This document shows, piece by piece, positions 10,201-64,000 of a stretch of 64,000 bases of DNA; the first letter of the stretch is position 1, and every line of letters begins with the position of its first letter. The notes beneath the pieces are model-generated. The model searched no databases and was not told where the DNA came from. It was given only the letters and a program-made list of their open reading frames with translations. Source of the stretch: a plasmid; the NCBI RefSeq assembly GCF_054482525.1, contig NZ_JBTHVG010000003.1. The stretch is one strand, 5' to 3'. The translations under genes and the position numbers were made by a program.

Positions 10201-10425
10201 CTGCGCCCGATCGTGATGACCTCCATCGCCTTTATCGCCGGGACCATTCCGCTGATCCTCGGCCACGGCGCGGGGGCGGAAGTCCGCGGCGTCACCGGGA
10301 TCACGGTGTTCTCCGGGATGCTGGGCGTGACGCTCTTCGGTCTGTTCCTGACGCCGGTGTTTTACGTGACGCTACGGAAACTGGTGACCCGCAGGAAGCC
10401 GGTCCAGGAGGATCTGCCCGCCTAG
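7273..10425 (+). CDS. oqxB: RND multidrug efflux transporter OqxB
   Basis: 1050 aa, 12-TM RND architecture; immediately downstream of oqxA; GC-rich. Confidence 0.95.
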   Translation: MDFSRFFIDRPIFAAVLSILIFITGLIAIPLLPVSEYPDVVPPSVQVRAEYPGANPKVIAETVATPLEEAINGVENMMYMKSVAGSDGVLVTTVTFRPGTDPDQAQVQVQNRVAQAEARLPEDVRRLGITTQKQSPTLTLVVHLFSPGGKYDSLYMRNYATLKVKDELARLPGVGQIQIFGSGEYAMRVWLDPNKVAARGLTASDVVTAMQEQNVQVSAGQLGAEPLPQESDFLISINAQGRLHTEEEFGNIILKTAQDGSLVRLRDVARIEMGSGSYALRSQLNNKDAVGIGIFQSPGANAIDLSNAVRAKMAELATRFPEDMQWAAPYDPTVFVRDSIRAVVQTLLEAVVLVVLVVILFLQTWRASIIPLIAVPVSVVGTFSILYLLGFSLNTLSLFGLVLAIGIVVDDAIVVVENVERNIEEGLAPLAAAYQAMREVSGPIIAIALVLCAVFVPMAFLSGVTGQFYKQFAVTIAISTVISAINSLTLSPALAALLLKPHGAKKDLPTRLIDRLFGWIFRPFNRFFLRSSNGYQGLVGKTLGRRGAVFAVYLLLLCAAGVMFKVVPGGFIPTQDKLYLIGGVKMPEGSSLARTDAVIRKMSEIGMNTEGVDYAVAFPGLNALQFTNTPNTGTIFFGLKPFDQRKHTAAEINAEINAKIAQIQQGFGFSILPPPILGLGQGSGYSLYIQDRGGLGYGALQSAVNAMSGAIMQTPGMHFPISTYQANVPQLDVQVDRDKAKAQGVSLTDLFGTLQTYLGSSYVNDFNQFGRTWRVMAQADGPYRESVEDIANLRTRNNQGEMVPIGSMVNISTTYGPDPVIRYNGYPAADLIGDADPRVLSSSQAMTHLEELSKQILPNGMNIEWTDLSFQQATQGNTALIVFPVAVLLAFLVLAALYESWTLPLAVILIVPMTMLSALFGVWLTGGDNNVFVQVGLVVLMGLACKNAILIVEFARELEIQGKGIMEAALEACRLRLRPIVMTSIAFIAGTIPLILGHGAGAEVRGVTGITVFSGMLGVTLFGLFLTPVFYVTLRKLVTRRKPVQEDLPA

Positions 10426-10494
10426 CCTGCAGCAGATAACAAAAAAACCGCCTTCACAATTTGAAGGCGGTTTTTTTTCGTCACCAGAAAATGA

Positions 10495-10974
10495 TTAATG
10501 CGCTTTTTTAAAGCGGGCGATCATTTCCGGCACCGGGTCGCAGCCGCTGGTATCGGCGTTTTTGACCGCCTCCAGCGCGCTGGCCACGGTATGGCGAGCG
10601 AGGACGTTTAACGAAGCCTGCTCTGCTTCATCGGCAACCGATTTGAAGTACCAGCAGGCGTTGGCGCTGACCACGCAGCGGGCCGGGACGTCAGGACGCG
10701 ACGCCCACAGTTTTTTATCTTCGATAACCGAAAGATAGATATCACGCAGGGTGATCTTGTCCGCCGGACGGCCAAGATGAATTGAGCCGTTGCGACCAAG
10801 CGTGGAGACGATAATGCCGTCACGAGTTAGCGGAACCATTAGTTTACGGATAAAGCTCGGGTTCGCTTCCAGGCCGTAGGCCAGAATCGCACTCGTCGAA
10901 CGTTCACCCATCTGCTCCGCCATTGCTACGCTGAGAACCATCTGCAAAGCTGTCGGGAAGCGGTAATCTAACAT
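10495..10974 (-). CDS. oqxR: Rrf2-family transcriptional repressor OqxR
   Basis: Convergent to oqxB; start reassigned to internal Met (MLDYRFPTALQ...) because the ORF-track N-terminus reads through the IS26 end. Confidence 0.8.
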   Translation of the reverse strand: MLDYRFPTALQMVLSVAMAEQMGERSTSAILAYGLEANPSFIRKLMVPLTRDGIIVSTLGRNGSIHLGRPADKITLRDIYLSVIEDKKLWASRPDVPARCVVSANACWYFKSVADEAEQASLNVLARHTVASALEAVKNADTSGCDPVPEMIARFKKAH

Positions 10975-11023
10975 GGCAGTGTCCTGGGTTGCGGTGAATC
11001 TTGTTCTTTTTAGCACCGCAGAG

Positions 11024-11843
11024 GGCACTGTTGCAAAGTTAGCGATGAGGCAGCCTTTTGTCTTATTCAAAGGCCTTACATTTCAAAAACTCTGCTTACC
11101 AGGCGCATTTCGCCCAGGGGATCACCATAATAAAATGCTGAGGCCTGGCCTTTGCGTAGTGCACGCATCACCTCAATACCTTTGATGGTGGCGTAAGCCG
11201 TCTTCATGGATTTAAATCCCAGCGTGGCGTTGATTATCCGTTTCAGTTTGCCATGATCGCATTCAATCACGTTGTTCCGGTACTTAATCTGTCGGTGTTC
11301 AACGTCAGACGGGCACCGGCCTTCGCGTTTGAGCAGAGCAAGCGCGCGACCATAGGCGGGCGCTTTATCCGTGTTGATGAATCGTGGGATCTGCCACTTC
11401 TTCACGTTGTTGAGGATTTTACCCAGAAACCGGTATGCAGCTTTGCTGTTACGACGGGAGGAGAGATAAAAATCGACAGTGCGGCCCCGGCTGTCGACGG
11501 CCCGGTACAGATACGCCCAGCGGCCATTGACCTTCACGTAGGTTTCATCCATGTGCCACGGGCAAAGATCGGAAGGGTTACGCCAGTACCAGCGCAGCCG
11601 TTTTTCCATTTCAGGCGCATAACGCTGAACCCAGCGGTAAATCGTGGAGTGATCGACATTCACTCCGCGTTCAGCCAGCATCTCCTGCAGCTCACGGTAA
11701 CTGATGCCGTATTTGCAGTACCAGCGTACGGCCCACAGAATGATGTCACGCTGAAAATGCCGGCCTTTGAATGGGTTCATGTGCAGCTCCATCAGCAAAA
11801 GGGGATGATAAGTTTATCACCACCGACTATTTGCAACAGTGCC
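11024..11843 (-). mobile_element. IS26 copy 3 (same orientation as copy 2; with copy 2 brackets oqxAB-oqxR as a Tn6010-like composite unit)
   Basis: IRs read directly; identical transposase. Confidence 0.95.
11076..11780 (-). CDS. tnpA: IS26 transposase
   Basis: Identical protein to copies 1 and 2. Confidence 0.95.
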   Translation of the reverse strand: MNPFKGRHFQRDIILWAVRWYCKYGISYRELQEMLAERGVNVDHSTIYRWVQRYAPEMEKRLRWYWRNPSDLCPWHMDETYVKVNGRWAYLYRAVDSRGRTVDFYLSSRRNSKAAYRFLGKILNNVKKWQIPRFINTDKAPAYGRALALLKREGRCPSDVEHRQIKYRNNVIECDHGKLKRIINATLGFKSMKTAYATIKGIEVMRALRKGQASAFYYGDPLGEMRLVSRVFEM

Positions 11844-19256: not shown

Positions 19257-19823
19257 TTGTCTTTTTCTGCAAGAAATATATTTAAGATTCTCTCTTCTTT
19301 CTTGATGCAGAAAAGCCCTCTTCATGAAGAAGTATGTGTTCCTGAAGAAACAACAGCTGGTTTATGGGGCCCTCTCCCTGATTCGCATGTCGTGCTTTTC
19401 TTAGATTTCGATGGGGTTTGTCACAGGTGCAAAAATGAAACCTTTGAGCGAATGCCATTGGTGGAAAAATTACTGGATAAATGCCCTTCCATGGTGATTG
19501 TCATCTCCAGTTCGTGGCGTGAATGTGCCAGTATAACTTACCTGAAATCTCTTTTCCGGCTACCTTATAGAGACAAAGTCATAGGTGCTACCGATTCGGT
19601 ATATTTAAAACCTAATCAGTCAGGTGTGCGGGCTGCTGAGTGTGAGGACTTTGTATTTTCACATCGAGTTAAAGCATTTATCTGCCTTGATGACGACGAA
19701 TCATTATTCCCGGTCGGTTATCCACATTTGCAAAAAACCAATTATTACACCGGCCTCACCGAATCTGATCTTGCAGCTCTTAACACCAGGTATCATCTGC
19801 TTATGAAACGTTGGGCTTCCTGA
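19257..19823 (+). CDS. Hypothetical protein, possibly HAD-like hydrolase
   Basis: ...LFLDFDGV... DxDG-type motif only; weak. Confidence 0.35.
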   Translation: MSFSARNIFKILSSFLMQKSPLHEEVCVPEETTAGLWGPLPDSHVVLFLDFDGVCHRCKNETFERMPLVEKLLDKCPSMVIVISSSWRECASITYLKSLFRLPYRDKVIGATDSVYLKPNQSGVRAAECEDFVFSHRVKAFICLDDDESLFPVGYPHLQKTNYYTGLTESDLAALNTRYHLLMKRWAS

Positions 19824-19826
19824 ATT

Positions 19827-19837
19827 AAAGTAACTTT
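19827..19837. promoter_or_regulatory. AAAGT(A/T)ACTTT palindrome copy
   Basis: ttAAAGTAACTTTTACgg; convergent intergenic. Confidence 0.5.
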
Positions 19838-19930
19838 TACGGAGAGCATGCCCGCATTATCAGTTCTATGCTTCTCCATTTCTGCCCCGGGTCAAAGCAT
19901 TGCACAGTTGGAAGAAAACATGCCGGTCTC

Positions 19931-21220
19931 TTAAGCTTGCTGCTCAGTTTGGTTCCGGTGCTGAAAAACCTGCCAACGGTGCTTTAGGAATTCAGTATTG
20001 ATGGGTTTACGCAGCGGCTTAATAAACTCTCCTTGATATGCCGCTAAATCATGATCTACCGCCAAAGCTTCAGCGAGAATGTTAACCTCCAACGTCACCG
20101 GATGAATGGCAATCATGTTTGCGTCGAAAAGATCGTGTATATCATGGCGTAAGAGCAACCCATTTGTATAATGGTCTACTCCTCCGTTACGATGCTCCAT
20201 CAGATGAGCAGCCTCAGTGCGCTGGCGCAGTCTAGAGCCTGTAATCACACATTGGTCATAACAGTTGTTGCGGACGGCTTCTGCAAATGAGGCCTGATCT
20301 GGTCGTGTCTCGACAGTTGTCTTACTACCCTTACGCTTACCCGGTACAGTAGTTTCATCAGGAATATTCGGCTGAAGCTCCTTTTCTTCTATACCATCAG
20401 TCTTCATAGCGACCATAATCGCGGCCGGTGGAGATTTAGGCTGATCTTCCTGCGATCTTTCGCGGCCACCAACTGGATACCCTAGAAAACCCTCAATGAT
20501 CTCTAGTGGAGGTAATGTAGCGTTTGAACGTGCATAAATAGCGAACTCTGCGGCACGTCCGCCGGGAATATATCTACGTACCAGTATTGGAAGAGAGGCT
20601 TCTTCATCTGGTTCCTCTTTTTCCGACAGGATTATTCGTTCGGTGAGACGGGCTGAATTTTTTTTCATTTCACTCAACAGTCTATTGCGTTCTTTTACCT
20701 TTCGGTCATTATCCTCCAACATCTTACGATGACTAACCTTAGCCAGATGGTCTTCCAGTTCCTGTATATATTCGGGATCGATAGTGTCAATTAGACCGAA
20801 CGCCATCAACCGCTCCCCCCTTGTTTTACAAGATTCTAGCCGAACGCGAATGTACTCCTTACGCTTGGCCATCAAATGTTCTTTTTGTTTTTTTTCTCGA
20901 ATTACACGGAGCTGAGTATTGTAATTAGAATAAACGGTTTCGCTATTCTGCTCTGTCTCTAGAGCAAATTTTTGTAGGTGTTCACGTAGTTTTTTACGGG
21001 TATTTTTGGGGGCATGCATTACGGTACGCTCAATGTATGAGCCTGTGCAGCGTAAAGAAAGTACAGTTTCAGCATGGGAATAACCAGCATTGAGACGATA
21101 GCGGGCAATTTTAAGCAAATTATTAAAGTGTGCACCATTACATATACCTAGTTCTTCCAAGACACGACGTTCTCTATCATTAATAGATGGATGGTTAATA
21201 TCTTTTACTTTGTTTGCCAT
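19931..21220 (-). CDS. HNH endonuclease-domain protein with charged coiled-coil N-terminal region
   Basis: C-terminal ...EAAHLMEHRNGGVDHYTNGLLLRHDIHDLFD... HNH signature; own terminator upstream; monocistronic. Confidence 0.6.
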   Translation of the reverse strand: MANKVKDINHPSINDRERRVLEELGICNGAHFNNLLKIARYRLNAGYSHAETVLSLRCTGSYIERTVMHAPKNTRKKLREHLQKFALETEQNSETVYSNYNTQLRVIREKKQKEHLMAKRKEYIRVRLESCKTRGERLMAFGLIDTIDPEYIQELEDHLAKVSHRKMLEDNDRKVKERNRLLSEMKKNSARLTERIILSEKEEPDEEASLPILVRRYIPGGRAAEFAIYARSNATLPPLEIIEGFLGYPVGGRERSQEDQPKSPPAAIMVAMKTDGIEEKELQPNIPDETTVPGKRKGSKTTVETRPDQASFAEAVRNNCYDQCVITGSRLRQRTEAAHLMEHRNGGVDHYTNGLLLRHDIHDLFDANMIAIHPVTLEVNILAEALAVDHDLAAYQGEFIKPLRKPINTEFLKHRWQVFQHRNQTEQQA

Positions 21221-21302
21221 GTCCTGTGTCTCAGTGCCTATTCAGCCGGAACATCTACTACATAAAGAACGAGATTGTACAGAAATCAGCTAAGTTTATG
21301 AA

Positions 21303-21338
21303 TAAAAAAGGCCGCAAATTTATACTTTGCGGCCTTCA
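21303..21338 (-). terminator. Rho-independent terminator downstream of the TraG-like gene
   Basis: aaggccgcaaa...tttgcggcctt hairpin with adjacent A-run on plus strand. Confidence 0.6.
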
Positions 21339-21400: not shown

Positions 21401-24400
21401 CTACCTTTTATTTTCATTAAGCCACTGATCCGCTTTATCGACACGTGACTGGTAAGGCTCATTTGTGTTGCTCAGCTCTGACTTCATGTACTGAATGAAT
21501 TCATCTGCTTTCTGAGGCCCAAAGCGTGGGTCATCCGTCAATTGCTGCCGGATAGCCCTTTCAGAGTTCTGCGCTGCATTCGCATAAGTCGAAACGCCGT
21601 CGCTGCTAATACTCTGATACCGGTCACTTACAGCTGCGACGCCATCAGACATCTGCATGTGATTAAGGACTTTACCCTGGAGAGAATCAGGCATATTTGC
21701 AGGGTTAGAGGCATCATTTGCTATCGATGTCTGGGTTTGAAGGATGCCCGCTCCCGTAAGCATCTCATTTACCGGTTTCGCCCCAACGCTGGTTAGCGTA
21801 TCCGAAACAAATTGCTGGCCCCCGAGTAGCGCACCAGAAATCGCGCCCCGCTCAGTGTTGGCCTCTATCTTTTCCCCAACCAAGCGATCTGTGACGGTCT
21901 GAGTGCGGTTACCAACGAGACCACCGCCCGACCCACCCTCTCCTAGGTTTGCCCGTACGACTGACTCAAGTGAACCATCAGCTCTGTTATGAGTGTTGAA
22001 ACTGCTATGGATGCTCTGAACGTCATTCATACTCCAGTTAACGTTATAGTTACCCAGTTCATTAAGGATCTTCTGGGTATCCGCTTTGAGCTGCTCTCTT
22101 TCGGCACCGGTAGCCATGGTGCTGGCACCATAGGTAAAGACAGCTTGCTGTGCCAATTCAGCTCGCTTATCGTCCCGGCTTAAGTTCGGGTTGTTGGCAA
22201 CACGACTAAAGTAGTTATCAGTGTTATTAGATAAGCCACGAACTTGACCGCTCTGATACATACTGTTCAAAGCAGTGGCTCGTTGATCCATTCCATCACC
22301 AACCACCCGACCTCCGGTAGCCTTTTCCAGATCGTTAAATGTGCCTTCTGCATTTCTGACATCCTGACCTGAATTGACGACTTTCTCTACACCCTGATTA
22401 TTCAGTACAGGGCCATTCGTTTTGAGAGAATTGAGCACATTCCTTTCTTCATCAGAATAAGTGCGGCCCACGTTGTTGTTATGTATTCCCTGAATATCGC
22501 CTTTGCCCGCGTTATCAAGGTTATACGGAGTAAAGCCAGCTTCACTTTTTCCAGGGACACGCTGAGTCGCGTCCTGAGCGTTGGAGGAAAGACCGAGTTT
22601 AGCCTGCGAATCAACACTTCCACCCAGTTCCCCTACGCGTGACGCACTCATCACGCCAGACGTATTTACGCTGTCAGGAGTTCTATCCTGTGCCTGAGTG
22701 ATAGTATTAATTCCTGACCCTTCGCCTGAAATTCTGTCGAGCTGATTGGTGATAGGTAGCAGCTGCTGTGCATTACCACCGAAGTCGGAAACCAGACTTT
22801 TAAGCAGGCTGGAGGTTTCACGGAGATCCTGTTTATTACTTTCGGCCGTCTCTCCCCGGGCGGTATCAATCGCAATTTTTTGCTCACTGAAATCTCGTGT
22901 TGCAGCCACAAGCGCGTCAGTACGTTGAAGCTGCGAACCAAGCTGATTACTGGCCTTGAAGGTATCGTTATAGGAGTTGAATTTCTCCATAAACGCATTC
23001 TCATCCAGCCCATTCTTACGAGCAAAATTCCTTACATCATCATCACTGAAGTTTTTGTTGCGAATAGAATCGGAGAACCTGTCCAGGTTAATGCTTTGTT
23101 TAGAATCAAGGCTCATTCCACTATTGGAGCTGGCGTTAGTCGATACCGATGTAGAAATGTTTTGCGCCATCGTCTGTGTCGCCTGGTTCATTTTCGACGA
23201 TGCTTCTTTAAACGCATTAGTATTGGATATCTGATCGCTGCTTACCTGAGACGCCGCTTTACTGAACTGGTCAGTCAAAGCAGAATCCTGGCTAAGCTGA
23301 TTCGTGATTGCTTTTGAAAGGTCATTTGAAAGCGAGTCACTGCCTGTATTGGTCTTAGATGCGCCGCTACTCAATTGCCCTGCTACAGCTGCTTTCAGCC
23401 CGGCTCCGTTGCCAGTTCCAGCACCTCCATTAAGCCCAGCGTTTAGAATAACATTTGAAGCAATGCTGGCCATCTGAGACGCACTCACCCCATGTTTCGT
23501 TGCAATACCTTCTGCTACAGAGGCACCAATCTTATCCGAGATCTGCTTCATTGTTTGCAGGTTGGTTGAGAACTGCTGGCTCGACTGTCCTGACCTTCCA
23601 ATTTCACTCATCTGACTGTAACCAGCCTGGAATGAATTACTTGCCGCACTCATAACTGATGAGGTTACAGCTGATCCTTGCCCCTGGCTGTTAGCGATAC
23701 TTGAACCAGCATTCCACATTCCAAGACGGAAATTACTTGAATCAACTGCGCCGCCATCGCTGTATCCCTGACCGGTACTGGTCAAGGCGGTTCGTGTCAC
23801 GTCACCAAATGAAGATTTACCGCTGTTAGGGCCATCCCATACTTTGGGCGTTACATGACCAGTATCCACCGGCGCATCGGGGGTCACTCCCTTAACCGCA
23901 TTCATCATCGGGTGAATCGACTGTGTCATCAGGAATAATGTGAGTACCGGAATCAGAGCATAAAGCGCGGAAGCAACAGACAGGTATGAACTGTATGTTT
24001 CCGCAAGCCCTGGGAGCCCCATCCACGTGACGGCATTATTCTGGCTGTTGAGGGTGCTCCAGGTATCCAGATCGGCCGTCGCGACTTTCTTCACATACGC
24101 GTTGACCATTACTGCCGTAAGCGGCCACATATTCACGAAGAGAATAAGTTGCAAATATTTCGCCGCAGCGGCAACACCATTACCACCTAACGCCAGCAGC
24201 ATAAGCAAAGCAAATGGAGCAACCATGTAAGCAAACATCTCAAGGAATGCGATTGCTGCTCCAGACAGTTGTAACCACAACTGGCCCTGTGAAGCCATTG
24301 TGTTGGTTCGCTTCAGAGAAGCCTCAAACAACTGCATATCGGAAGCCAGACTGAGTGGGGTCTTATATTTGCTTGCGCCATTTCTGAGCTCATTCATTAT

Positions 24401-25354
24401 GAACAGGTTCAGGGTGGCGTCATACGAACCAATAGCCTTACCGTACATACCATTTGCTGACGCCATAACATCAGTAAAACTTGCGCCGGTAGGTGCACCA
24501 TTTGCTTCGTCTGGAGTAAGGATGCCGTTTGTCTGTCCTATAAGGGAAATAGTCTGGCGAGCTTCAGCTGTACTGGTAACCTGTTTCACAGTTGACCAGA
24601 CCTCATCACACGTACCAGATTTTGAACCGTTAGCGCCAACAATACTGGCAGAGGCATTCTTCAGTGCGCCTTTCATCGCCTGATTAATCCGGTCCATGCT
24701 ATCTGCCAGATTAGCTGAGAAAATATCGTTAAAAATAGTTTCTTTACCGGCAATATTTGCGCTTGAGTTTTGGGTAGCCTTCAGGCAGTTGTATGCAAGA
24801 GACTGAACGGTAGCACATACGTTCATTGGCCCTAGCCCGCTGGCCGGTTCAGGAAATGCAGAACAGTAGCCCTGGCTATCGCCGCCCCATTGCAAAAACT
24901 TCACGAATCGGATCATCGGACCGAGGGTGATGTCATCGTCCAGAGTTGTTGCAGACAGGTCCACCGGAGAAAGCGGATCAAACGCAGTTTTATAATCCTT
25001 CAGCAAACCCTGGCTTAAGTTAGTGGTGACGGTGGCCATCGCAGCAATAAAAATTGGAATTCCGTCGACGTTTCTGACCTCTCCCGACTTTACAGATTCA
25101 ATAGTTACATCCACTCGAACCATTGCCATCATGAAAAGGATCAACCCCAAAAACCAGGAGAAAAACGGTAATTCATTTTTGGTCGGAGCCTGAAGCCATA
25201 GCCACGTTTTATAGAATAGGCTCACACCTGCTACAACGGCGGCCGTGGTCAGGAACTCTTTTACACCAGTATATTGAGAAAAGATTAGGGCAATACCGGT
25301 AAAAGCCGACCAGACAAAATCAATATCACCCAGGGTATATATGTTGTAATCCAT
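21401..25354 (-). CDS. F-type TraG-like mating-pair stabilisation / pilus assembly protein (large, multi-TM N-terminus)
   Basis: 1317 aa, N-terminal TM helices, Ser/Thr/Gln-rich C-terminal half; adjacent to TraH- and TraF-like genes. Confidence 0.6.
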   Translation of the reverse strand: MDYNIYTLGDIDFVWSAFTGIALIFSQYTGVKEFLTTAAVVAGVSLFYKTWLWLQAPTKNELPFFSWFLGLILFMMAMVRVDVTIESVKSGEVRNVDGIPIFIAAMATVTTNLSQGLLKDYKTAFDPLSPVDLSATTLDDDITLGPMIRFVKFLQWGGDSQGYCSAFPEPASGLGPMNVCATVQSLAYNCLKATQNSSANIAGKETIFNDIFSANLADSMDRINQAMKGALKNASASIVGANGSKSGTCDEVWSTVKQVTSTAEARQTISLIGQTNGILTPDEANGAPTGASFTDVMASANGMYGKAIGSYDATLNLFIMNELRNGASKYKTPLSLASDMQLFEASLKRTNTMASQGQLWLQLSGAAIAFLEMFAYMVAPFALLMLLALGGNGVAAAAKYLQLILFVNMWPLTAVMVNAYVKKVATADLDTWSTLNSQNNAVTWMGLPGLAETYSSYLSVASALYALIPVLTLFLMTQSIHPMMNAVKGVTPDAPVDTGHVTPKVWDGPNSGKSSFGDVTRTALTSTGQGYSDGGAVDSSNFRLGMWNAGSSIANSQGQGSAVTSSVMSAASNSFQAGYSQMSEIGRSGQSSQQFSTNLQTMKQISDKIGASVAEGIATKHGVSASQMASIASNVILNAGLNGGAGTGNGAGLKAAVAGQLSSGASKTNTGSDSLSNDLSKAITNQLSQDSALTDQFSKAASQVSSDQISNTNAFKEASSKMNQATQTMAQNISTSVSTNASSNSGMSLDSKQSINLDRFSDSIRNKNFSDDDVRNFARKNGLDENAFMEKFNSYNDTFKASNQLGSQLQRTDALVAATRDFSEQKIAIDTARGETAESNKQDLRETSSLLKSLVSDFGGNAQQLLPITNQLDRISGEGSGINTITQAQDRTPDSVNTSGVMSASRVGELGGSVDSQAKLGLSSNAQDATQRVPGKSEAGFTPYNLDNAGKGDIQGIHNNNVGRTYSDEERNVLNSLKTNGPVLNNQGVEKVVNSGQDVRNAEGTFNDLEKATGGRVVGDGMDQRATALNSMYQSGQVRGLSNNTDNYFSRVANNPNLSRDDKRAELAQQAVFTYGASTMATGAEREQLKADTQKILNELGNYNVNWSMNDVQSIHSSFNTHNRADGSLESVVRANLGEGGSGGGLVGNRTQTVTDRLVGEKIEANTERGAISGALLGGQQFVSDTLTSVGAKPVNEMLTGAGILQTQTSIANDASNPANMPDSLQGKVLNHMQMSDGVAAVSDRYQSISSDGVSTYANAAQNSERAIRQQLTDDPRFGPQKADEFIQYMKSELSNTNEPYQSRVDKADQWLNENKR

Positions 25355-39891: not shown

Positions 39892-40623
39892 ATGGATGCT
39901 TTCAATCTGCTGTGGAGCATTACGGGGGTAGCTTTCATTATCCTTATTTTCGTCGTGTTGCTGTGTCTGTTGGGTTTTATGACCTCTGCCATAGCGGAAC
40001 GGCGGACTGCAAAGGCAATTGAATCTGGGCTTCCTGAAGAAGCTCAGGGGCTACTTAGTGATCTCACCTTTCAGTTGTCGGCTCATAGCACTACTCAGGT
40101 TGATCACATTCTCGTAGCCCCACATGGTATATACGTCATAGAGCAGAAAAACTACGTAGGCAAGCTCTACGGTACTCTGGAGGAAAGCCACTGGCGGAAA
40201 TGGACTCAGTCCCGAACCCTCAAGTTGCAGAACCCGTTTAAGCAAAACCAGGGGCACATCAGGGCTATTCAGTCTGCTCTTAAGGCTAGAGAACTGGAAT
40301 GTATCAATGTCGTCATCATAAACGGACGTTGTAAGTTTGATGGCATCAAGCCGGAATGGTTATGTATGGGGATGGACGATTTTATCCATAAAGTCAAACA
40401 ACGACGAGGGCTACGGTTGTTCACACCGGAGTCTGTTCAGCACATCTGTTCGGTGTTGAAGTCAACAAGGAAGTCGCCAGGGCTCTATACGGACCTTACT
40501 CATATTCACAACATAACGACAAAGTACAAAGCCCCGATGAAATTCGAGCAACGAGTAACATACATTCTGCTCAACTTTATCCATTATCTGTGGGCAAGTC
40601 TGTTCACTAAGCAGAAGCCTTAG
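39892..40623 (+). CDS. NERD (nuclease-related domain) protein with N-terminal TM helix
   Basis: ...VDHILVAPHGIYVIEQKNYVGKLYG... then ...QNPFKQNQGHIRAIQ...; 1-bp gap to the S49 gene. Confidence 0.6.
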   Translation: MDAFNLLWSITGVAFIILIFVVLLCLLGFMTSAIAERRTAKAIESGLPEEAQGLLSDLTFQLSAHSTTQVDHILVAPHGIYVIEQKNYVGKLYGTLEESHWRKWTQSRTLKLQNPFKQNQGHIRAIQSALKARELECINVVIINGRCKFDGIKPEWLCMGMDDFIHKVKQRRGLRLFTPESVQHICSVLKSTRKSPGLYTDLTHIHNITTKYKAPMKFEQRVTYILLNFIHYLWASLFTKQKP

Positions 40624-60153: not shown

Positions 60154-60720
60154 TTATTCGTTTTGTTTCTGTTCGTTATACTGCTCAAACCAGAAGACGA
60201 CCGGTTTTACTACAATATGAAGCAAACCAAAACGTTCTGCGGTACGGAAATTCACGCTATATGCGCGAGCCCGTTCAACCTGTTTGGTAATTTCATTTCT
60301 CATTCCTTCAACACTAAAAGCTCCTTTAAAAAGGTTGCAGGGAGCGCATGATGGAAATAAGTTTTCTATTGCATGCAGTTCAGGGTGCATAACCTTACCC
60401 GTACTTCGGGCAACATGAGTTACGCCGCTGCCGACCGGGGCTCTCACCAGTTCAAAGTCGCGTCGAACAGGCTCAACATGATCGGCATGCCACCCTTTTT
60501 CAGGAAGCTTGCAACCACAATAGGCACAACGCCCCCCAAATTTCATTCGCAGCTCAGCTCGCTGTATTTTAGAGATCTTATTTTTAGGTTTTGAGAACCT
60601 ACCATCAGGTGATTCCGCTTTGGATAACTTTGCTGAGGGCTCAGGTAACTCAACTAAATTCCCGTTGATATTTATCACCTTGACCATATCATTTTCCGCC
60701 TTTACTAATCTCACGGGCAC
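60154..60720 (-). CDS. HNH endonuclease (zinc-finger-containing HNH motif)
   Basis: ...GGRCAYCGCKLPEKGWHADHVEPV...CAPCN... HNH core. Confidence 0.65.
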   Translation of the reverse strand: MPVRLVKAENDMVKVININGNLVELPEPSAKLSKAESPDGRFSKPKNKISKIQRAELRMKFGGRCAYCGCKLPEKGWHADHVEPVRRDFELVRAPVGSGVTHVARSTGKVMHPELHAIENLFPSCAPCNLFKGAFSVEGMRNEITKQVERARAYSVNFRTAERFGLLHIVVKPVVFWFEQYNEQKQNE

Positions 60721-61795: not shown

Positions 61796-64000
61796 TTATA
61801 CGACCTGCCTGACCATCCTCATCAGAAGGCGGTTTAACAGTCCTTTCGCTGTCGGGCGATTGCTATCGACATAGTAAAAACCTGTTTTGGTCGTACCGTG
61901 AGCACTGCTCAGCACCCTCAGTTCCCAGATAACGTCACGGATAACGCCGCCATTTTCTGGCTTAAGGCATTCAGATAAATGGCGCATGAAACGAGCTCTT
62001 ACGGCACGGTAATAGCGGAACTCCTCTGGCTGGTTAGTATTTTCTTTCACCCGGAGTCGCTGGTTACACAGAGTTAGAACTGCATCCATCATTCCCGCCT
62101 TCAGCTTCGCCTGGATCGCACCTTGTTGCTGTTCCCTCTCACCTTCGAGTAACGTTAAGATTCTTTCTCCGAGTGCCGTCTTGTTGTGTACGTGCAACTG
62201 TACACAGGCAGCTACGCATGCCCAGAATCTGAACTTTTTTATCTGTCCACGCAATTTCCGGGCTACAACCTGACGGTATGCAGTATCGCTGAGTATTTTA
62301 AAACGCCGACTGGCAACCAGCTCTGGAAGCGACACTCTTTCGCCTATCCCCAGGCGGGAAAAGGTTTGTCCCCGTTGTGCGAGACGATGATAGACAGCGC
62401 CCTTCCCTTTTGAAATTCGGACCGCGCCATAACGAAGAAGATACTGAGCAGCAGTCGTTGGAGTAAACTCACCGTCAGCGATGCTCTGGCGTAACCCGTC
62501 GTATTCATGCCAGATAATCCAGGACGCCGTATCTTCTTCAACAGTCAGCTCATCCTCTTCCTCGAATGCCACGACGACAGAACTGCTCTCTCCGGTCTTT
62601 AGGCTACGTGAAGCCCTGGGGTCAGCCTGCCCGTCAAAATAGGTCATCAGCGGCAACGTATCAGTCAGTCCATCATAAGCTGTACCGAACCGGCCTCCGG
62701 GCAGTTTCATCCAGAGTGGAGCTGGCATTGGTGTACGGGCCACAGGCAGCATGTCAGGCTCATCCTCAAGAAGGTCCAGATCGGCCTCTTCCCAGACTCT
62801 GCGATAGATCTCAATTGCCCGAAACGGGCGAGGGTTGAAACAGTGCAACGACCAGAGGAAATCAACGTGGATCACGTTTGCTTCATGTACAAGCCGAAAT
62901 TGTGGCTCAGCCATACGACGGTTATAAGCCGTATCGTCCACCTCGCCGGAAAGTAGCTTTCTGCGATGCTTTGCCGCACGTCTGGCTTCAACATAATCAA
63001 GGCTGCAACAGACATGAAAAAGACGTTCAGTCAGGGACGAAGAAAAGATATTGGGTTGAAGACGCACATACCCGCCTTCGAACACTTTACGACCGATATA
63101 ATCCCGCAGGCTCCAGTCGTACTGGATCTTAGAAAGAAATCGCTGAAGACGACTTAGGCCTGCCTGATAACCATATTTCTCAGGGTCAGTGCGAAGGAGC
63201 GTTTCCATTGAATGGTCAACCCCTACGGCTGTGCAAAGCGAGCACCCATATCTAGCCCCACAAGCTGAGGTTCGCGTGGGTTTCTCCGGCGACCAGATAC
63301 ACTCTCCGGTGGCGTCTTTATAAAGCGTTGCCAGGCTGAAGTTATCCGGCATAAAGCTTGGTAAAGGGAAGCGGGATTCGGAACCACAGGCCATTAGAAA
63401 AGACCAGATGTCCTGAGTGCGCCACTCCTTTACTGGATAGAGTTCACCACCGTGCTCAGTCAGGGTTACTTTCCTCGCCTGCCCTCCCATTTTGAGGATA
63501 TTTCCGGCCCTTCGGGCACTTTCATCATCCCTGGAGCCCAGCATCAGGCATACCCTGCTTCGTACGGATGCCGGGGCGTTTTTTAGATAACGAGCTTTGG
63601 CCTTGCGCAGGGGGGCGATTTTGTAGTCGGTTGAGCACTGACGGGTTGAAGAATTAGTCCAGGTCGGAAGTCCACGTCCAGTCAGAATGCGGCCTACCCA
63701 GCTCTGCGTAAGAGACGGTTGGGCGACAAGGACTGTGACCGGTAGCTGGTGTTCAGCAATGAACATTCTAAGCTGGTTGAGAACCTGTGAAGCCTGATAG
63801 TGCATCTCAGGGTTTTCGATCAGCGTATCGGACATCTGAATGAAATGATGTTCGCTGATATTTGTGCCGTTACGTACTGCCCTGATCAATGCCATCAGAA
63901 ATAGGTGAAGAAGAGAATGGGAGTCTTTACCGCCACTGTATCCCACGCACATCGTCCATCCGTCCGTAATAGCCTGATAAATAGCAGATGTGGCTGACGT
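61796..64000 (-). CDS. PAPS-reductase-like (PP-loop ATP pyrophosphatase, DndC-like) large protein; 5' end beyond the window
   Basis: ...VGYSGGKDSHSLLHLF... PP-loop SGGKDS motif; reading frame stays open upstream of the listed Met to position 64000. Confidence 0.6.
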   Translation of the reverse strand, partial: TSATSAIYQAITDGWTMCVGYSGGKDSHSLLHLFLMALIRAVRNGTNISEHHFIQMSDTLIENPEMHYQASQVLNQLRMFIAEHQLPVTVLVAQPSLTQSWVGRILTGRGLPTWTNSSTRQCSTDYKIAPLRKAKARYLKNAPASVRSRVCLMLGSRDDESARRAGNILKMGGQARKVTLTEHGGELYPVKEWRTQDIWSFLMACGSESRFPLPSFMPDNFSLATLYKDATGECIWSPEKPTRTSACGARYGCSLCTAVGVDHSMETLLRTDPEKYGYQAGLSRLQRFLSKIQYDWSLRDYIGRKVFEGGYVRLQPNIFSSSLTERLFHVCCSLDYVEARRAAKHRRKLLSGEVDDTAYNRRMAEPQFRLVHEANVIHVDFLWSLHCFNPRPFRAIEIYRRVWEEADLDLLEDEPDMLPVARTPMPAPLWMKLPGGRFGTAYDGLTDTLPLMTYFDGQADPRASRSLKTGESSSVVVAFEEEDELTVEEDTASWIIWHEYDGLRQSIADGEFTPTTAAQYLLRYGAVRISKGKGAVYHRLAQRGQTFSRLGIGERVSLPELVASRRFKILSDTAYRQVVARKLRGQIKKFRFWACVAACVQLHVHNKTALGERILTLLEGEREQQQGAIQAKLKAGMMDAVLTLCNQRLRVKENTNQPEEFRYYRAVRARFMRHLSECLKPENGGVIRDVIWELRVLSSAHGTTKTGFYYVDSNRPTAKGLLNRLLMRMVRQVV

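Follow-up and report, generated by a model that had tools for sequence, protein, structure and literature searches.

The Tra1 region of an IncHI2 plasmid, which makes up the 64,000-nucleotide stretch analyzed here (the window), carries a gene for an HNH protein among its conjugation genes, and the question that this locus raises is what such a nuclease does there. A sequence-only reading of the window suggested that the gene could encode a single-gene defence nuclease, a colicin-like DNase, or a transfer-associated nuclease. The first is the best-supported option: the protein features a nuclease domain of the TagI/VcaM4I type, the gene has no adjacent methyltransferase or immunity gene, and full-length homologues are located in defence islands. 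We give about an even chance to the reading that the gene is an autonomous IncHI2 cargo and its product a defence nuclease of the solitary, restriction-type (type IV-like) kind.

Gene Organization and Distribution

The open reading frame encodes exactly 429 amino acids at the position first assigned to it (Table 1). The identical DNA in plasmid pSTM6-275 carries no annotation beyond 'HNH endonuclease signature motif containing protein' (WP_001284752.1). The gene lies, as originally described, between the Tra1 accessory genes for a lytic transglycosylase, a DsbC-like protein, and a HAD protein on one side and the mating-pair genes trhF-trhH-trhG on the other. Its 5' neighbour on the same strand is trhG (21401..25354), which encodes the 1,317-residue TraG_N protein TrhG, and its 3' neighbour is the HAD-domain gene (19257..19823, plus strand), which is convergent with the HNH gene. 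The spacers are 180 bp on the trhG side and 107 bp on the other side. trhG is followed by an intrinsic terminator that belongs to the conserved backbone, as homology with the other IncHI2 lineage continues through the terminator to position 21304, and that is predicted to insulate the HNH gene from the trhF-trhH-trhG operon. A promoter-like site directly follows the terminator and forms the first bases of the variable cassette described below. A search for a canonical terminator 3' of the HNH gene found none. The terminator, the promoter-like site, and the convergent HAD gene make it well supported by sequence that the gene is monocistronic, in agreement with the initial reading.

The gene matches 521 plasmids in PLSDB, with at least 99% identity in 518 of them. 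Nearly all of these plasmids are conjugative, 200–330 kb in size, and from Escherichia, Salmonella, and Klebsiella. The IncHI2 lineage that carries the gene is a vehicle of multidrug resistance among E. coli, Salmonella, and Klebsiella. Complete E. coli genomes carry the gene in 222 of 5,426 cases (4%), at 222 plasmid places and 4 chromosomal places. A tblastn search found no paralogue of the protein within the window. The IncHI backbone encodes a 285-residue paralogue near the plasmid hns gene that shares only the HNH_2 domain, with 44% identity over 131 residues, and tblastn gives two places for the nuclease domain in most IncHI2 plasmids of the window's lineage. C-terminal matches like the hns-proximal paralogue are also found in other large conjugative plasmids, apparently including those of the IncHI1 type.

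Table 1. Coordinates of the HNH gene, its encoded domains, its cassette, and related loci. Positions refer to the window unless a comparison locus (L) is named.
Feature	Position	Strand	Basis
CDS, 429-aa HNH_2 protein (1,290 bp; ATG at 21220, stop included at 19931)	19931..21220	-	ORF, plasmid match, Pfam
Basic four-helix N-terminal domain, aa 15-69, pI 9.2	21014..21178	-	AlphaFold pLDDT >90, alignment
Two long charged helices (72-130, 149-193), predicted hairpin, aa 72-193	20642..21007	-	charge composition, AlphaFold
Apex motif R-x-x-R-[LY]-x-A-[WF]-G-x-I, aa 134-144, predicted hairpin tip	20789..20821	-	alignments
Conserved three-helix domain (I218, F226, F245), aa 206-250 (helices 210-246)	20471..20605	-	alignments, AlphaFold
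Disordered Pro/Glu-rich linker, aa 251-302 (disordered 256-302)	20315..20470	-	AlphaFold, allele comparison
HNH_2 nuclease domain, TagI/VcaM4I kind, aa 303-429	19934..20314	-	Pfam, 52-sequence alignment, AlphaFold model, structure match
HNH residues H339; N353; H362	20204..20206; 20162..20164; 20135..20137	-	
Intrinsic terminator of trhG (12-bp G+C-rich stem, 7-nt loop, U-run)	21307..21337	-	deltaG -19.2 kcal/mol, z -5.9 vs shuffles
Promoter-like site TTCATA-17-TACAAT	21274..21302	-	consensus match only, 9/12
Variable cargo cassette (promoter-like site, HNH gene, 3' spacer)	19814..21303	.	slot comparison among IncHI plasmids
trhG-HAD slot	window 19814-21303; L009 2794-4521; L010 3281-3526; L011 3281-3651		
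~90-aa ORF upstream of some relatives	L012 7716-7991; L003 9725-9997; L024 7723-7998		
285-aa hns-proximal HNH_2 paralogue	L007 8548-9405 (pC45_001)		

The C-Terminal Nuclease Domain

The C-terminal HNH motif reported in the sequence-only reading is confirmed by Pfam, which finds a single domain in the 429-residue protein, HNH_2 (PF13391), at residues 324–373 with an E value of 3.6e-10 over the full model (1–66). The same domain is matched in all 52 aligned relatives. The residues R306, Q309, F312, C324, H339, N353, G354, H362, and D366 are invariant in 52 of 52 sequences, and because the active-site residues H339, N353, and H362 are among them, the active site is taken to be intact. The AlphaFold (AF2) model of the HNH core consists of strands 335–339 and 354–358 and helix 359–366 with a pLDDT above 94, and it features the catalytic His, the structural Asn, and the metal-ligand His of a beta-beta-alpha-metal core. 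Both the sequence and the predicted fold of the domain match the nuclease domains of TagI and VcaM4I (PDB 6ghs and 6yex). The alignment and the model indicate that the C-terminal ~130 residues are an HNH_2 domain with an intact predicted active site. A sequence search of the PDB with a 10-sequence profile gave no match. PADLOC-DB v2 returned no named defence system, only the generic 'HNH' models PDLC04132 (1.7e-5) and PDLC03546 (0.029), which both match the C-terminus, and PHROGs returned only families of unknown function, all of which match the C-terminal domain.

The N-Terminal Region

The N-terminal region was studied with alignments of ten full-length homologues at first and of 52 relatives afterwards, and the AlphaFold model was built on the 52-sequence alignment (mean pLDDT 84.8). 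The sequence-only reading had described the N-terminal two-thirds of the protein as a charged coiled coil and had put forward structure prediction as a check. The model does feature two long helices, and residues 71–205 consist of 42% Lys, Arg, Asp, and Glu; however, this charged stretch makes up only about one-third of the protein and has folded domains on either side. The putative coiled coil would be a helical hairpin within the monomer, as predicted by the model. The folded domain that precedes it is a basic four-helix module, which is present in two copies in some relatives and might bind DNA in a HTH-like manner. The apex motif at the predicted tip of the hairpin is the best-conserved N-terminal feature across the family. 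The three-helix domain that follows the hairpin is also found in short relatives of ~260 residues, and it is connected to the nuclease domain by the disordered linker.

Pfam has no family for N-terminal residues 1–300 of the query or of any of the 52 relatives, a fold search gave no match for the N-terminus above the helical-bundle background, and PHROG and PADLOC searches gave no match outside of the HNH domain. A profile of residues 1–250 retrieved only 25 clusters from 1.84 billion representative proteins. All 22 of the inspected clusters have an HNH_2-type C-terminus, of two subtypes, and the other three are fragments of 70–126 residues. The N-terminal family appears from these searches to be small and closed, with one effector type and no known reader domain.

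The region has been exchanged between alleles. Plasmid L016 carries an allele that is 57% identical to that of the window (P0003) in the same slot between trhG and the HAD gene, which allows the two to be compared against a common backbone. The trhG genes of the two plasmids differ with a pS of 0.274 and a pN of 0.018. The HNH domain (residues 291–429) has a pS of 0.254, which equals that of the backbone, a pN of 0.10, and 79% amino acid identity, whereas the DNA for residues 1–290 and the promoter region is essentially unalignable, with a pS of 0.74 and 45% amino acid identity. The recombination breakpoint is located in the linker at ~nt 20348. The backbone-like pS in the HNH domain and the saturated pS upstream therefore point to replacement of the N-terminal region by recombination as a module, and such an exchange would be as expected for specificity determinants in conflict systems.

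The trhG-HAD Junction

A comparison with a 4-kb query around the HNH gene revealed three states of the junction between trhG and the HAD gene. The other large IncHI2 lineage, which has plasmids in Enterobacter, Citrobacter, and Klebsiella (e.g., pGENC423), has flanks that are 96–98% identical to those of the window as far as positions 21304 and 19813, and its slot encodes, on the opposite strand, a 353-residue protein and a downstream YrhA-family protein (125 bits vs. a cut-off of 55). The 353-residue protein features a C-terminal PF01844 HNH motif, 'WQVHHKIPL...DNL', and by its sequence the pair looks like a toxin/immunity arrangement. The two cassettes occupy the same slot with the same boundaries and both encode an HNH nuclease, but the pGENC423-type cassette differs in its orientation, in its immunity-like YrhA-family partner, and in its HNH family, PF01844, which is unrelated to HNH_2. 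When plasmids of that lineage were searched by tblastn with the 429-residue protein at an E limit of 1e-5, the hns-proximal paralogue was the sole match, and no similarity to the 353-residue protein was detected. The junction is empty in the IncHI1 plasmid pHCM1 and in one IncHI1B plasmid, which have spacers of 246 and 372 bp, and both plasmids are typed conjugative.

Since the flanks are shared and the content differs, the backbone supplies the trhG terminator and the cassette of the window brings its own promoter-like site. A core transfer function is excluded because the gene is missing from IncHI1 and is replaced in the sister IncHI2 lineage. The trhG-HAD junction of IncHI plasmids appears to be a cargo hotspot with sharp boundaries, which for plasmid biology would be a slot that exchanges alternative nuclease cassettes.

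Relatives and Their Genomic Neighbourhoods

All of the relatives that were examined are on mobile elements, including conjugative plasmids, phage-plasmids, and islands. P0007 and P0008 are divergent and adjoin type I R-M operons in Salmonella islands, where P0007 also has a Mokosh MkoC-like protein and another HNH_2 protein as neighbours and P0008 has a NERD helicase. A type I R-M system beside a solitary HNH restriction-type gene recalls the immigration control region of E. coli K-12. P0004, from an Enterobacter plasmid, adjoins PifA, Septu PtuA/PtuB, and CcdAB, and P0049 is located beside type I-F cas genes on an integrase-bearing element. P0009 and P0012 share one slot, and P0026 occupies another, of contigs that are SSU5/pHCM2-type phage-plasmid-like by gene content. 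P0027 adjoins plasmid replication genes, P0005 is found in a small Pectobacterium island, and P0057 is in tandem with a second family member. Recognized defence neighbourhoods account for ~4 of 9 distinct contexts, which is suggestive of a defence role but not decisive. The remaining contexts (the phage-plasmid slots, the replication region, and the Pectobacterium island) are neutral, which limits the support that the neighbourhoods give to the defence reading.

An ORF of ~90 residues is located 3–10 bp upstream of P0004, P0005, and P0049, with 39% identity between the first two and no match in PADLOC, and it may encode a regulator or partner in this subclade. It was considered as a partner gene of the HNH protein and rejected; the window has no such ORF, and the one that precedes P0009 at the corresponding position shows 15% identity and is not clearly related. 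On a metagenomic contig that is rich in small ORFs (L025, 420-3788), family members of 490 and 441 residues are in tandem with a 189-residue ORF between them.

Proposed Function and Alternative Roles

The nuclease domain of TagI and VcaM4I dimerizes and cuts both DNA strands. By itself it is non-specific and toxic when expressed, and the remainder of the VcaM4I or TagI protein restrains and directs it (PMC7897488). The HNH domains of the 429-residue protein would, by analogy with VcaM4I and TagI, dimerize and cut without sequence specificity, and the N-terminal ~300 residues would stand in for the usual SRA or EVE reader. The N-terminus, with its basic domain and helices, would bind a feature of foreign DNA that is missing from Dam+/Dcm+ enterobacterial hosts, or would sense a protein of an invader. 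Stable carriage of the gene in E. coli rules out Dam and Dcm methylation as the mark. With its flexible tether of ~50 residues, the HNH dimer would reach and cut nearby DNA that belongs to an incoming phage or to a rival plasmid. The N-terminal front end, which is swapped as a unit by recombination, would be the specificity module.

There are several findings that speak against a defence nuclease. The protein has no recognized modification-reader domain, no N-terminal Pfam family, and no significant fold match, and PADLOC has no specific model for it beyond the generic HNH match. The auto-inhibitory inter-domain helix in the linker of VcaM4I has no evident counterpart; the linker of the 429-residue protein is disordered. 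A search of the literature found no study of this protein and no experiment on any family member.

The nuclease could also serve in offence or in competition between elements. It would then be expressed when the plasmid enters a recipient or while it resides there, and would attack rival plasmids or prophages that are already present rather than incoming phage. This role, which we consider unlikely, would suit a family that is found only on mobile elements, a gene that is ~9–10 kb from the mobI/relaxase region, the expected location of oriT, and an alternative cassette in the same slot that looks toxin/immunity-like. However, it overlaps mechanistically with the defence reading and so gains no independent support, and the two cannot be separated with the present data.

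It is quite unlikely that the cassette is a selfish, homing-like unit with a free-standing nuclease that cuts cassette-free sites and spreads by repair without benefit to the plasmid. The intergenic slot, the sharp boundaries, and the promoter-like site of its own are consistent with homing, as are the intergenic positions of relatives in several unrelated mobile elements and the layout of putative HTH-like DNA-binding modules, flexible linker, and nuclease, which resembles I-TevI and I-HmuI. However, the protein has a nuclease domain of the dimeric restriction type and not the HNH or HNH_3 with NUMOD of phage homing enzymes; Pfam gives no HNH, HNH_3, or NUMOD match in the 429-residue protein, and the sequence-only reading was correct in setting its architecture apart from small homing-type HNH proteins. 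The two alleles of the slot have also swapped the presumed recognition region, which misfits homing to one site, and the other IncHI2 lineage has an unrelated cassette between exactly the same boundaries, which points to a general cargo hotspot. A scan of IMG/VR gave only a single related locus.

A toxin is improbable, whether it would act as a bacteriocin like the colicins, as a DNase of the polymorphic-toxin kind, or as the toxic component of an addiction module. In the related VcaM4I, the HNH domain on its own has a non-specific toxic effect (PMC7897488), and the sister IncHI2 lineage has the HNH and YrhA-family pair in the same slot; however, the cassette features no immunity, antitoxin, or lysis ORF, and hundreds of plasmids stably maintain an intact copy of the gene with no partner beside it. 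The suggestion of a colicin-like DNase is not supported, as HNH_2 is the sole Pfam match of the protein, which matches neither the colicin-DNase nor the Tox-HNH families and has no match to secretion-associated, receptor-binding, or translocation domains, and the 107-bp and 180-bp flanks contain no ORF. The proposed transfer-associated nuclease, which would act in DNA processing, multimer resolution, or exclusion for conjugation or maintenance, would fit the place of the gene in Tra1, immediately 3' of trhG and in the same orientation, but it is the least probable role given the strong terminator between the two genes, the conjugative IncHI1 and IncHI1B plasmids with an empty slot, the different cassette of the sister lineage, the homologues in phage-plasmids and islands that have no transfer genes, and the MobH relaxase, coupling protein, and Mpf genes that are each present separately on the plasmid.

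Relationship to Known Systems

The defence nuclease proposed here can be compared with three groups of restriction enzymes. The type IV enzymes TagI (SRA-HNH) and VcaM4I (EVE-HNH) have a homologous nuclease domain. They utilize a reader of the PUA superfamily, whereas the 429-residue protein features an all-helical region of ~300 residues that has no known relatives, and Pfam and fold searches recognized none of the type IV reader domains SRA, EVE/PUA, SBD, NEco, and winged helix in it. The protein would work like a TagI/VcaM4I-type enzyme but cannot be filed as one, since the searches did not find the reader domain that defines the group. EcoKMcrA and ScoMcrA/SprMcrA, which are type IV enzymes for 5mC/5hmC or phosphorothioate DNA, are likewise solitary HNH restriction enzymes and have weak structural and HMM similarity to the 429-residue protein in the HNH core. 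EcoKMcrA is carried on a mobile element of enterobacteria. The type IIS HNH_2 enzymes AlwI, BbrI, and HphI belong to group 6 of the His-Me finger classification (PMC5714182). Their nuclease domains are of the same Pfam family as that of the 429-residue protein, and their recognition is located outside of the HNH domain. Type II enzymes are, in general, paired with a cognate methyltransferase, whereas no such partner is found in or beside the cassette, which contains only the HNH gene and has trhG and the HAD gene as neighbours.

Judged by its sequence, the 429-residue protein is best called a known restriction nuclease domain joined to an undescribed helical candidate sensor, in a small family that is restricted to mobile elements. 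The nuclease type is familiar, whereas the N-terminal architecture is new and the gene is prevalent on clinically important plasmids. A tentative extension is that the HTH-like modules, the apex hairpin, and the three-helix domain form a new kind of sensor that steers a restriction-type HNH dimer, and that the trhG-HAD junction serves IncHI plasmids as a dedicated hotspot for conflict genes, much like the hotspots for defence genes in SXT-type ICEs. The N-terminus would then read a DNA feature that is outside of the range of known readers, or an invader protein would trigger it in the style of abortive infection. If this is true, the most widespread IncHI2 resistance plasmids would shape which phages and plasmids their hosts accept, and for enzymology the protein would represent a new non-PUA sensor architecture among the modification-dependent HNH restriction enzymes. 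If the nuclease is active in defence or in competition, it would affect the phage susceptibility of carriers, which matters for phage therapy, and their uptake of other plasmids.

Other Features of the Window

The window encodes a 718-residue protein (61796-63952, minus strand) with an N-terminal DndC-like PAPS-reductase domain (TIGR03183, 115 bits vs. a cut-off of 290 bits), which could be a candidate DNA-modification enzyme on the same plasmid. A small HNH-motif protein of 188 residues (60154-60720, minus strand) has a weak match to a retron-associated HNH family (E 2e-4, below the cut-off). A NERD ('nuclease-related domain') protein of 243 residues (39892-40623, plus strand) is encoded directly after a S49 peptidase gene, as annotated in pSTM6-275, at the end of the relaxase/coupling-protein operon. 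At 5050-11798, ORFs of 391 and 1,050 residues (6074..10425, ~60% G+C) are located between two flanking ORFs of 240 residues, and from ORF sizes and composition only, this region looks like an oqxAB-like RND efflux pair in an IS26-type composite transposon.
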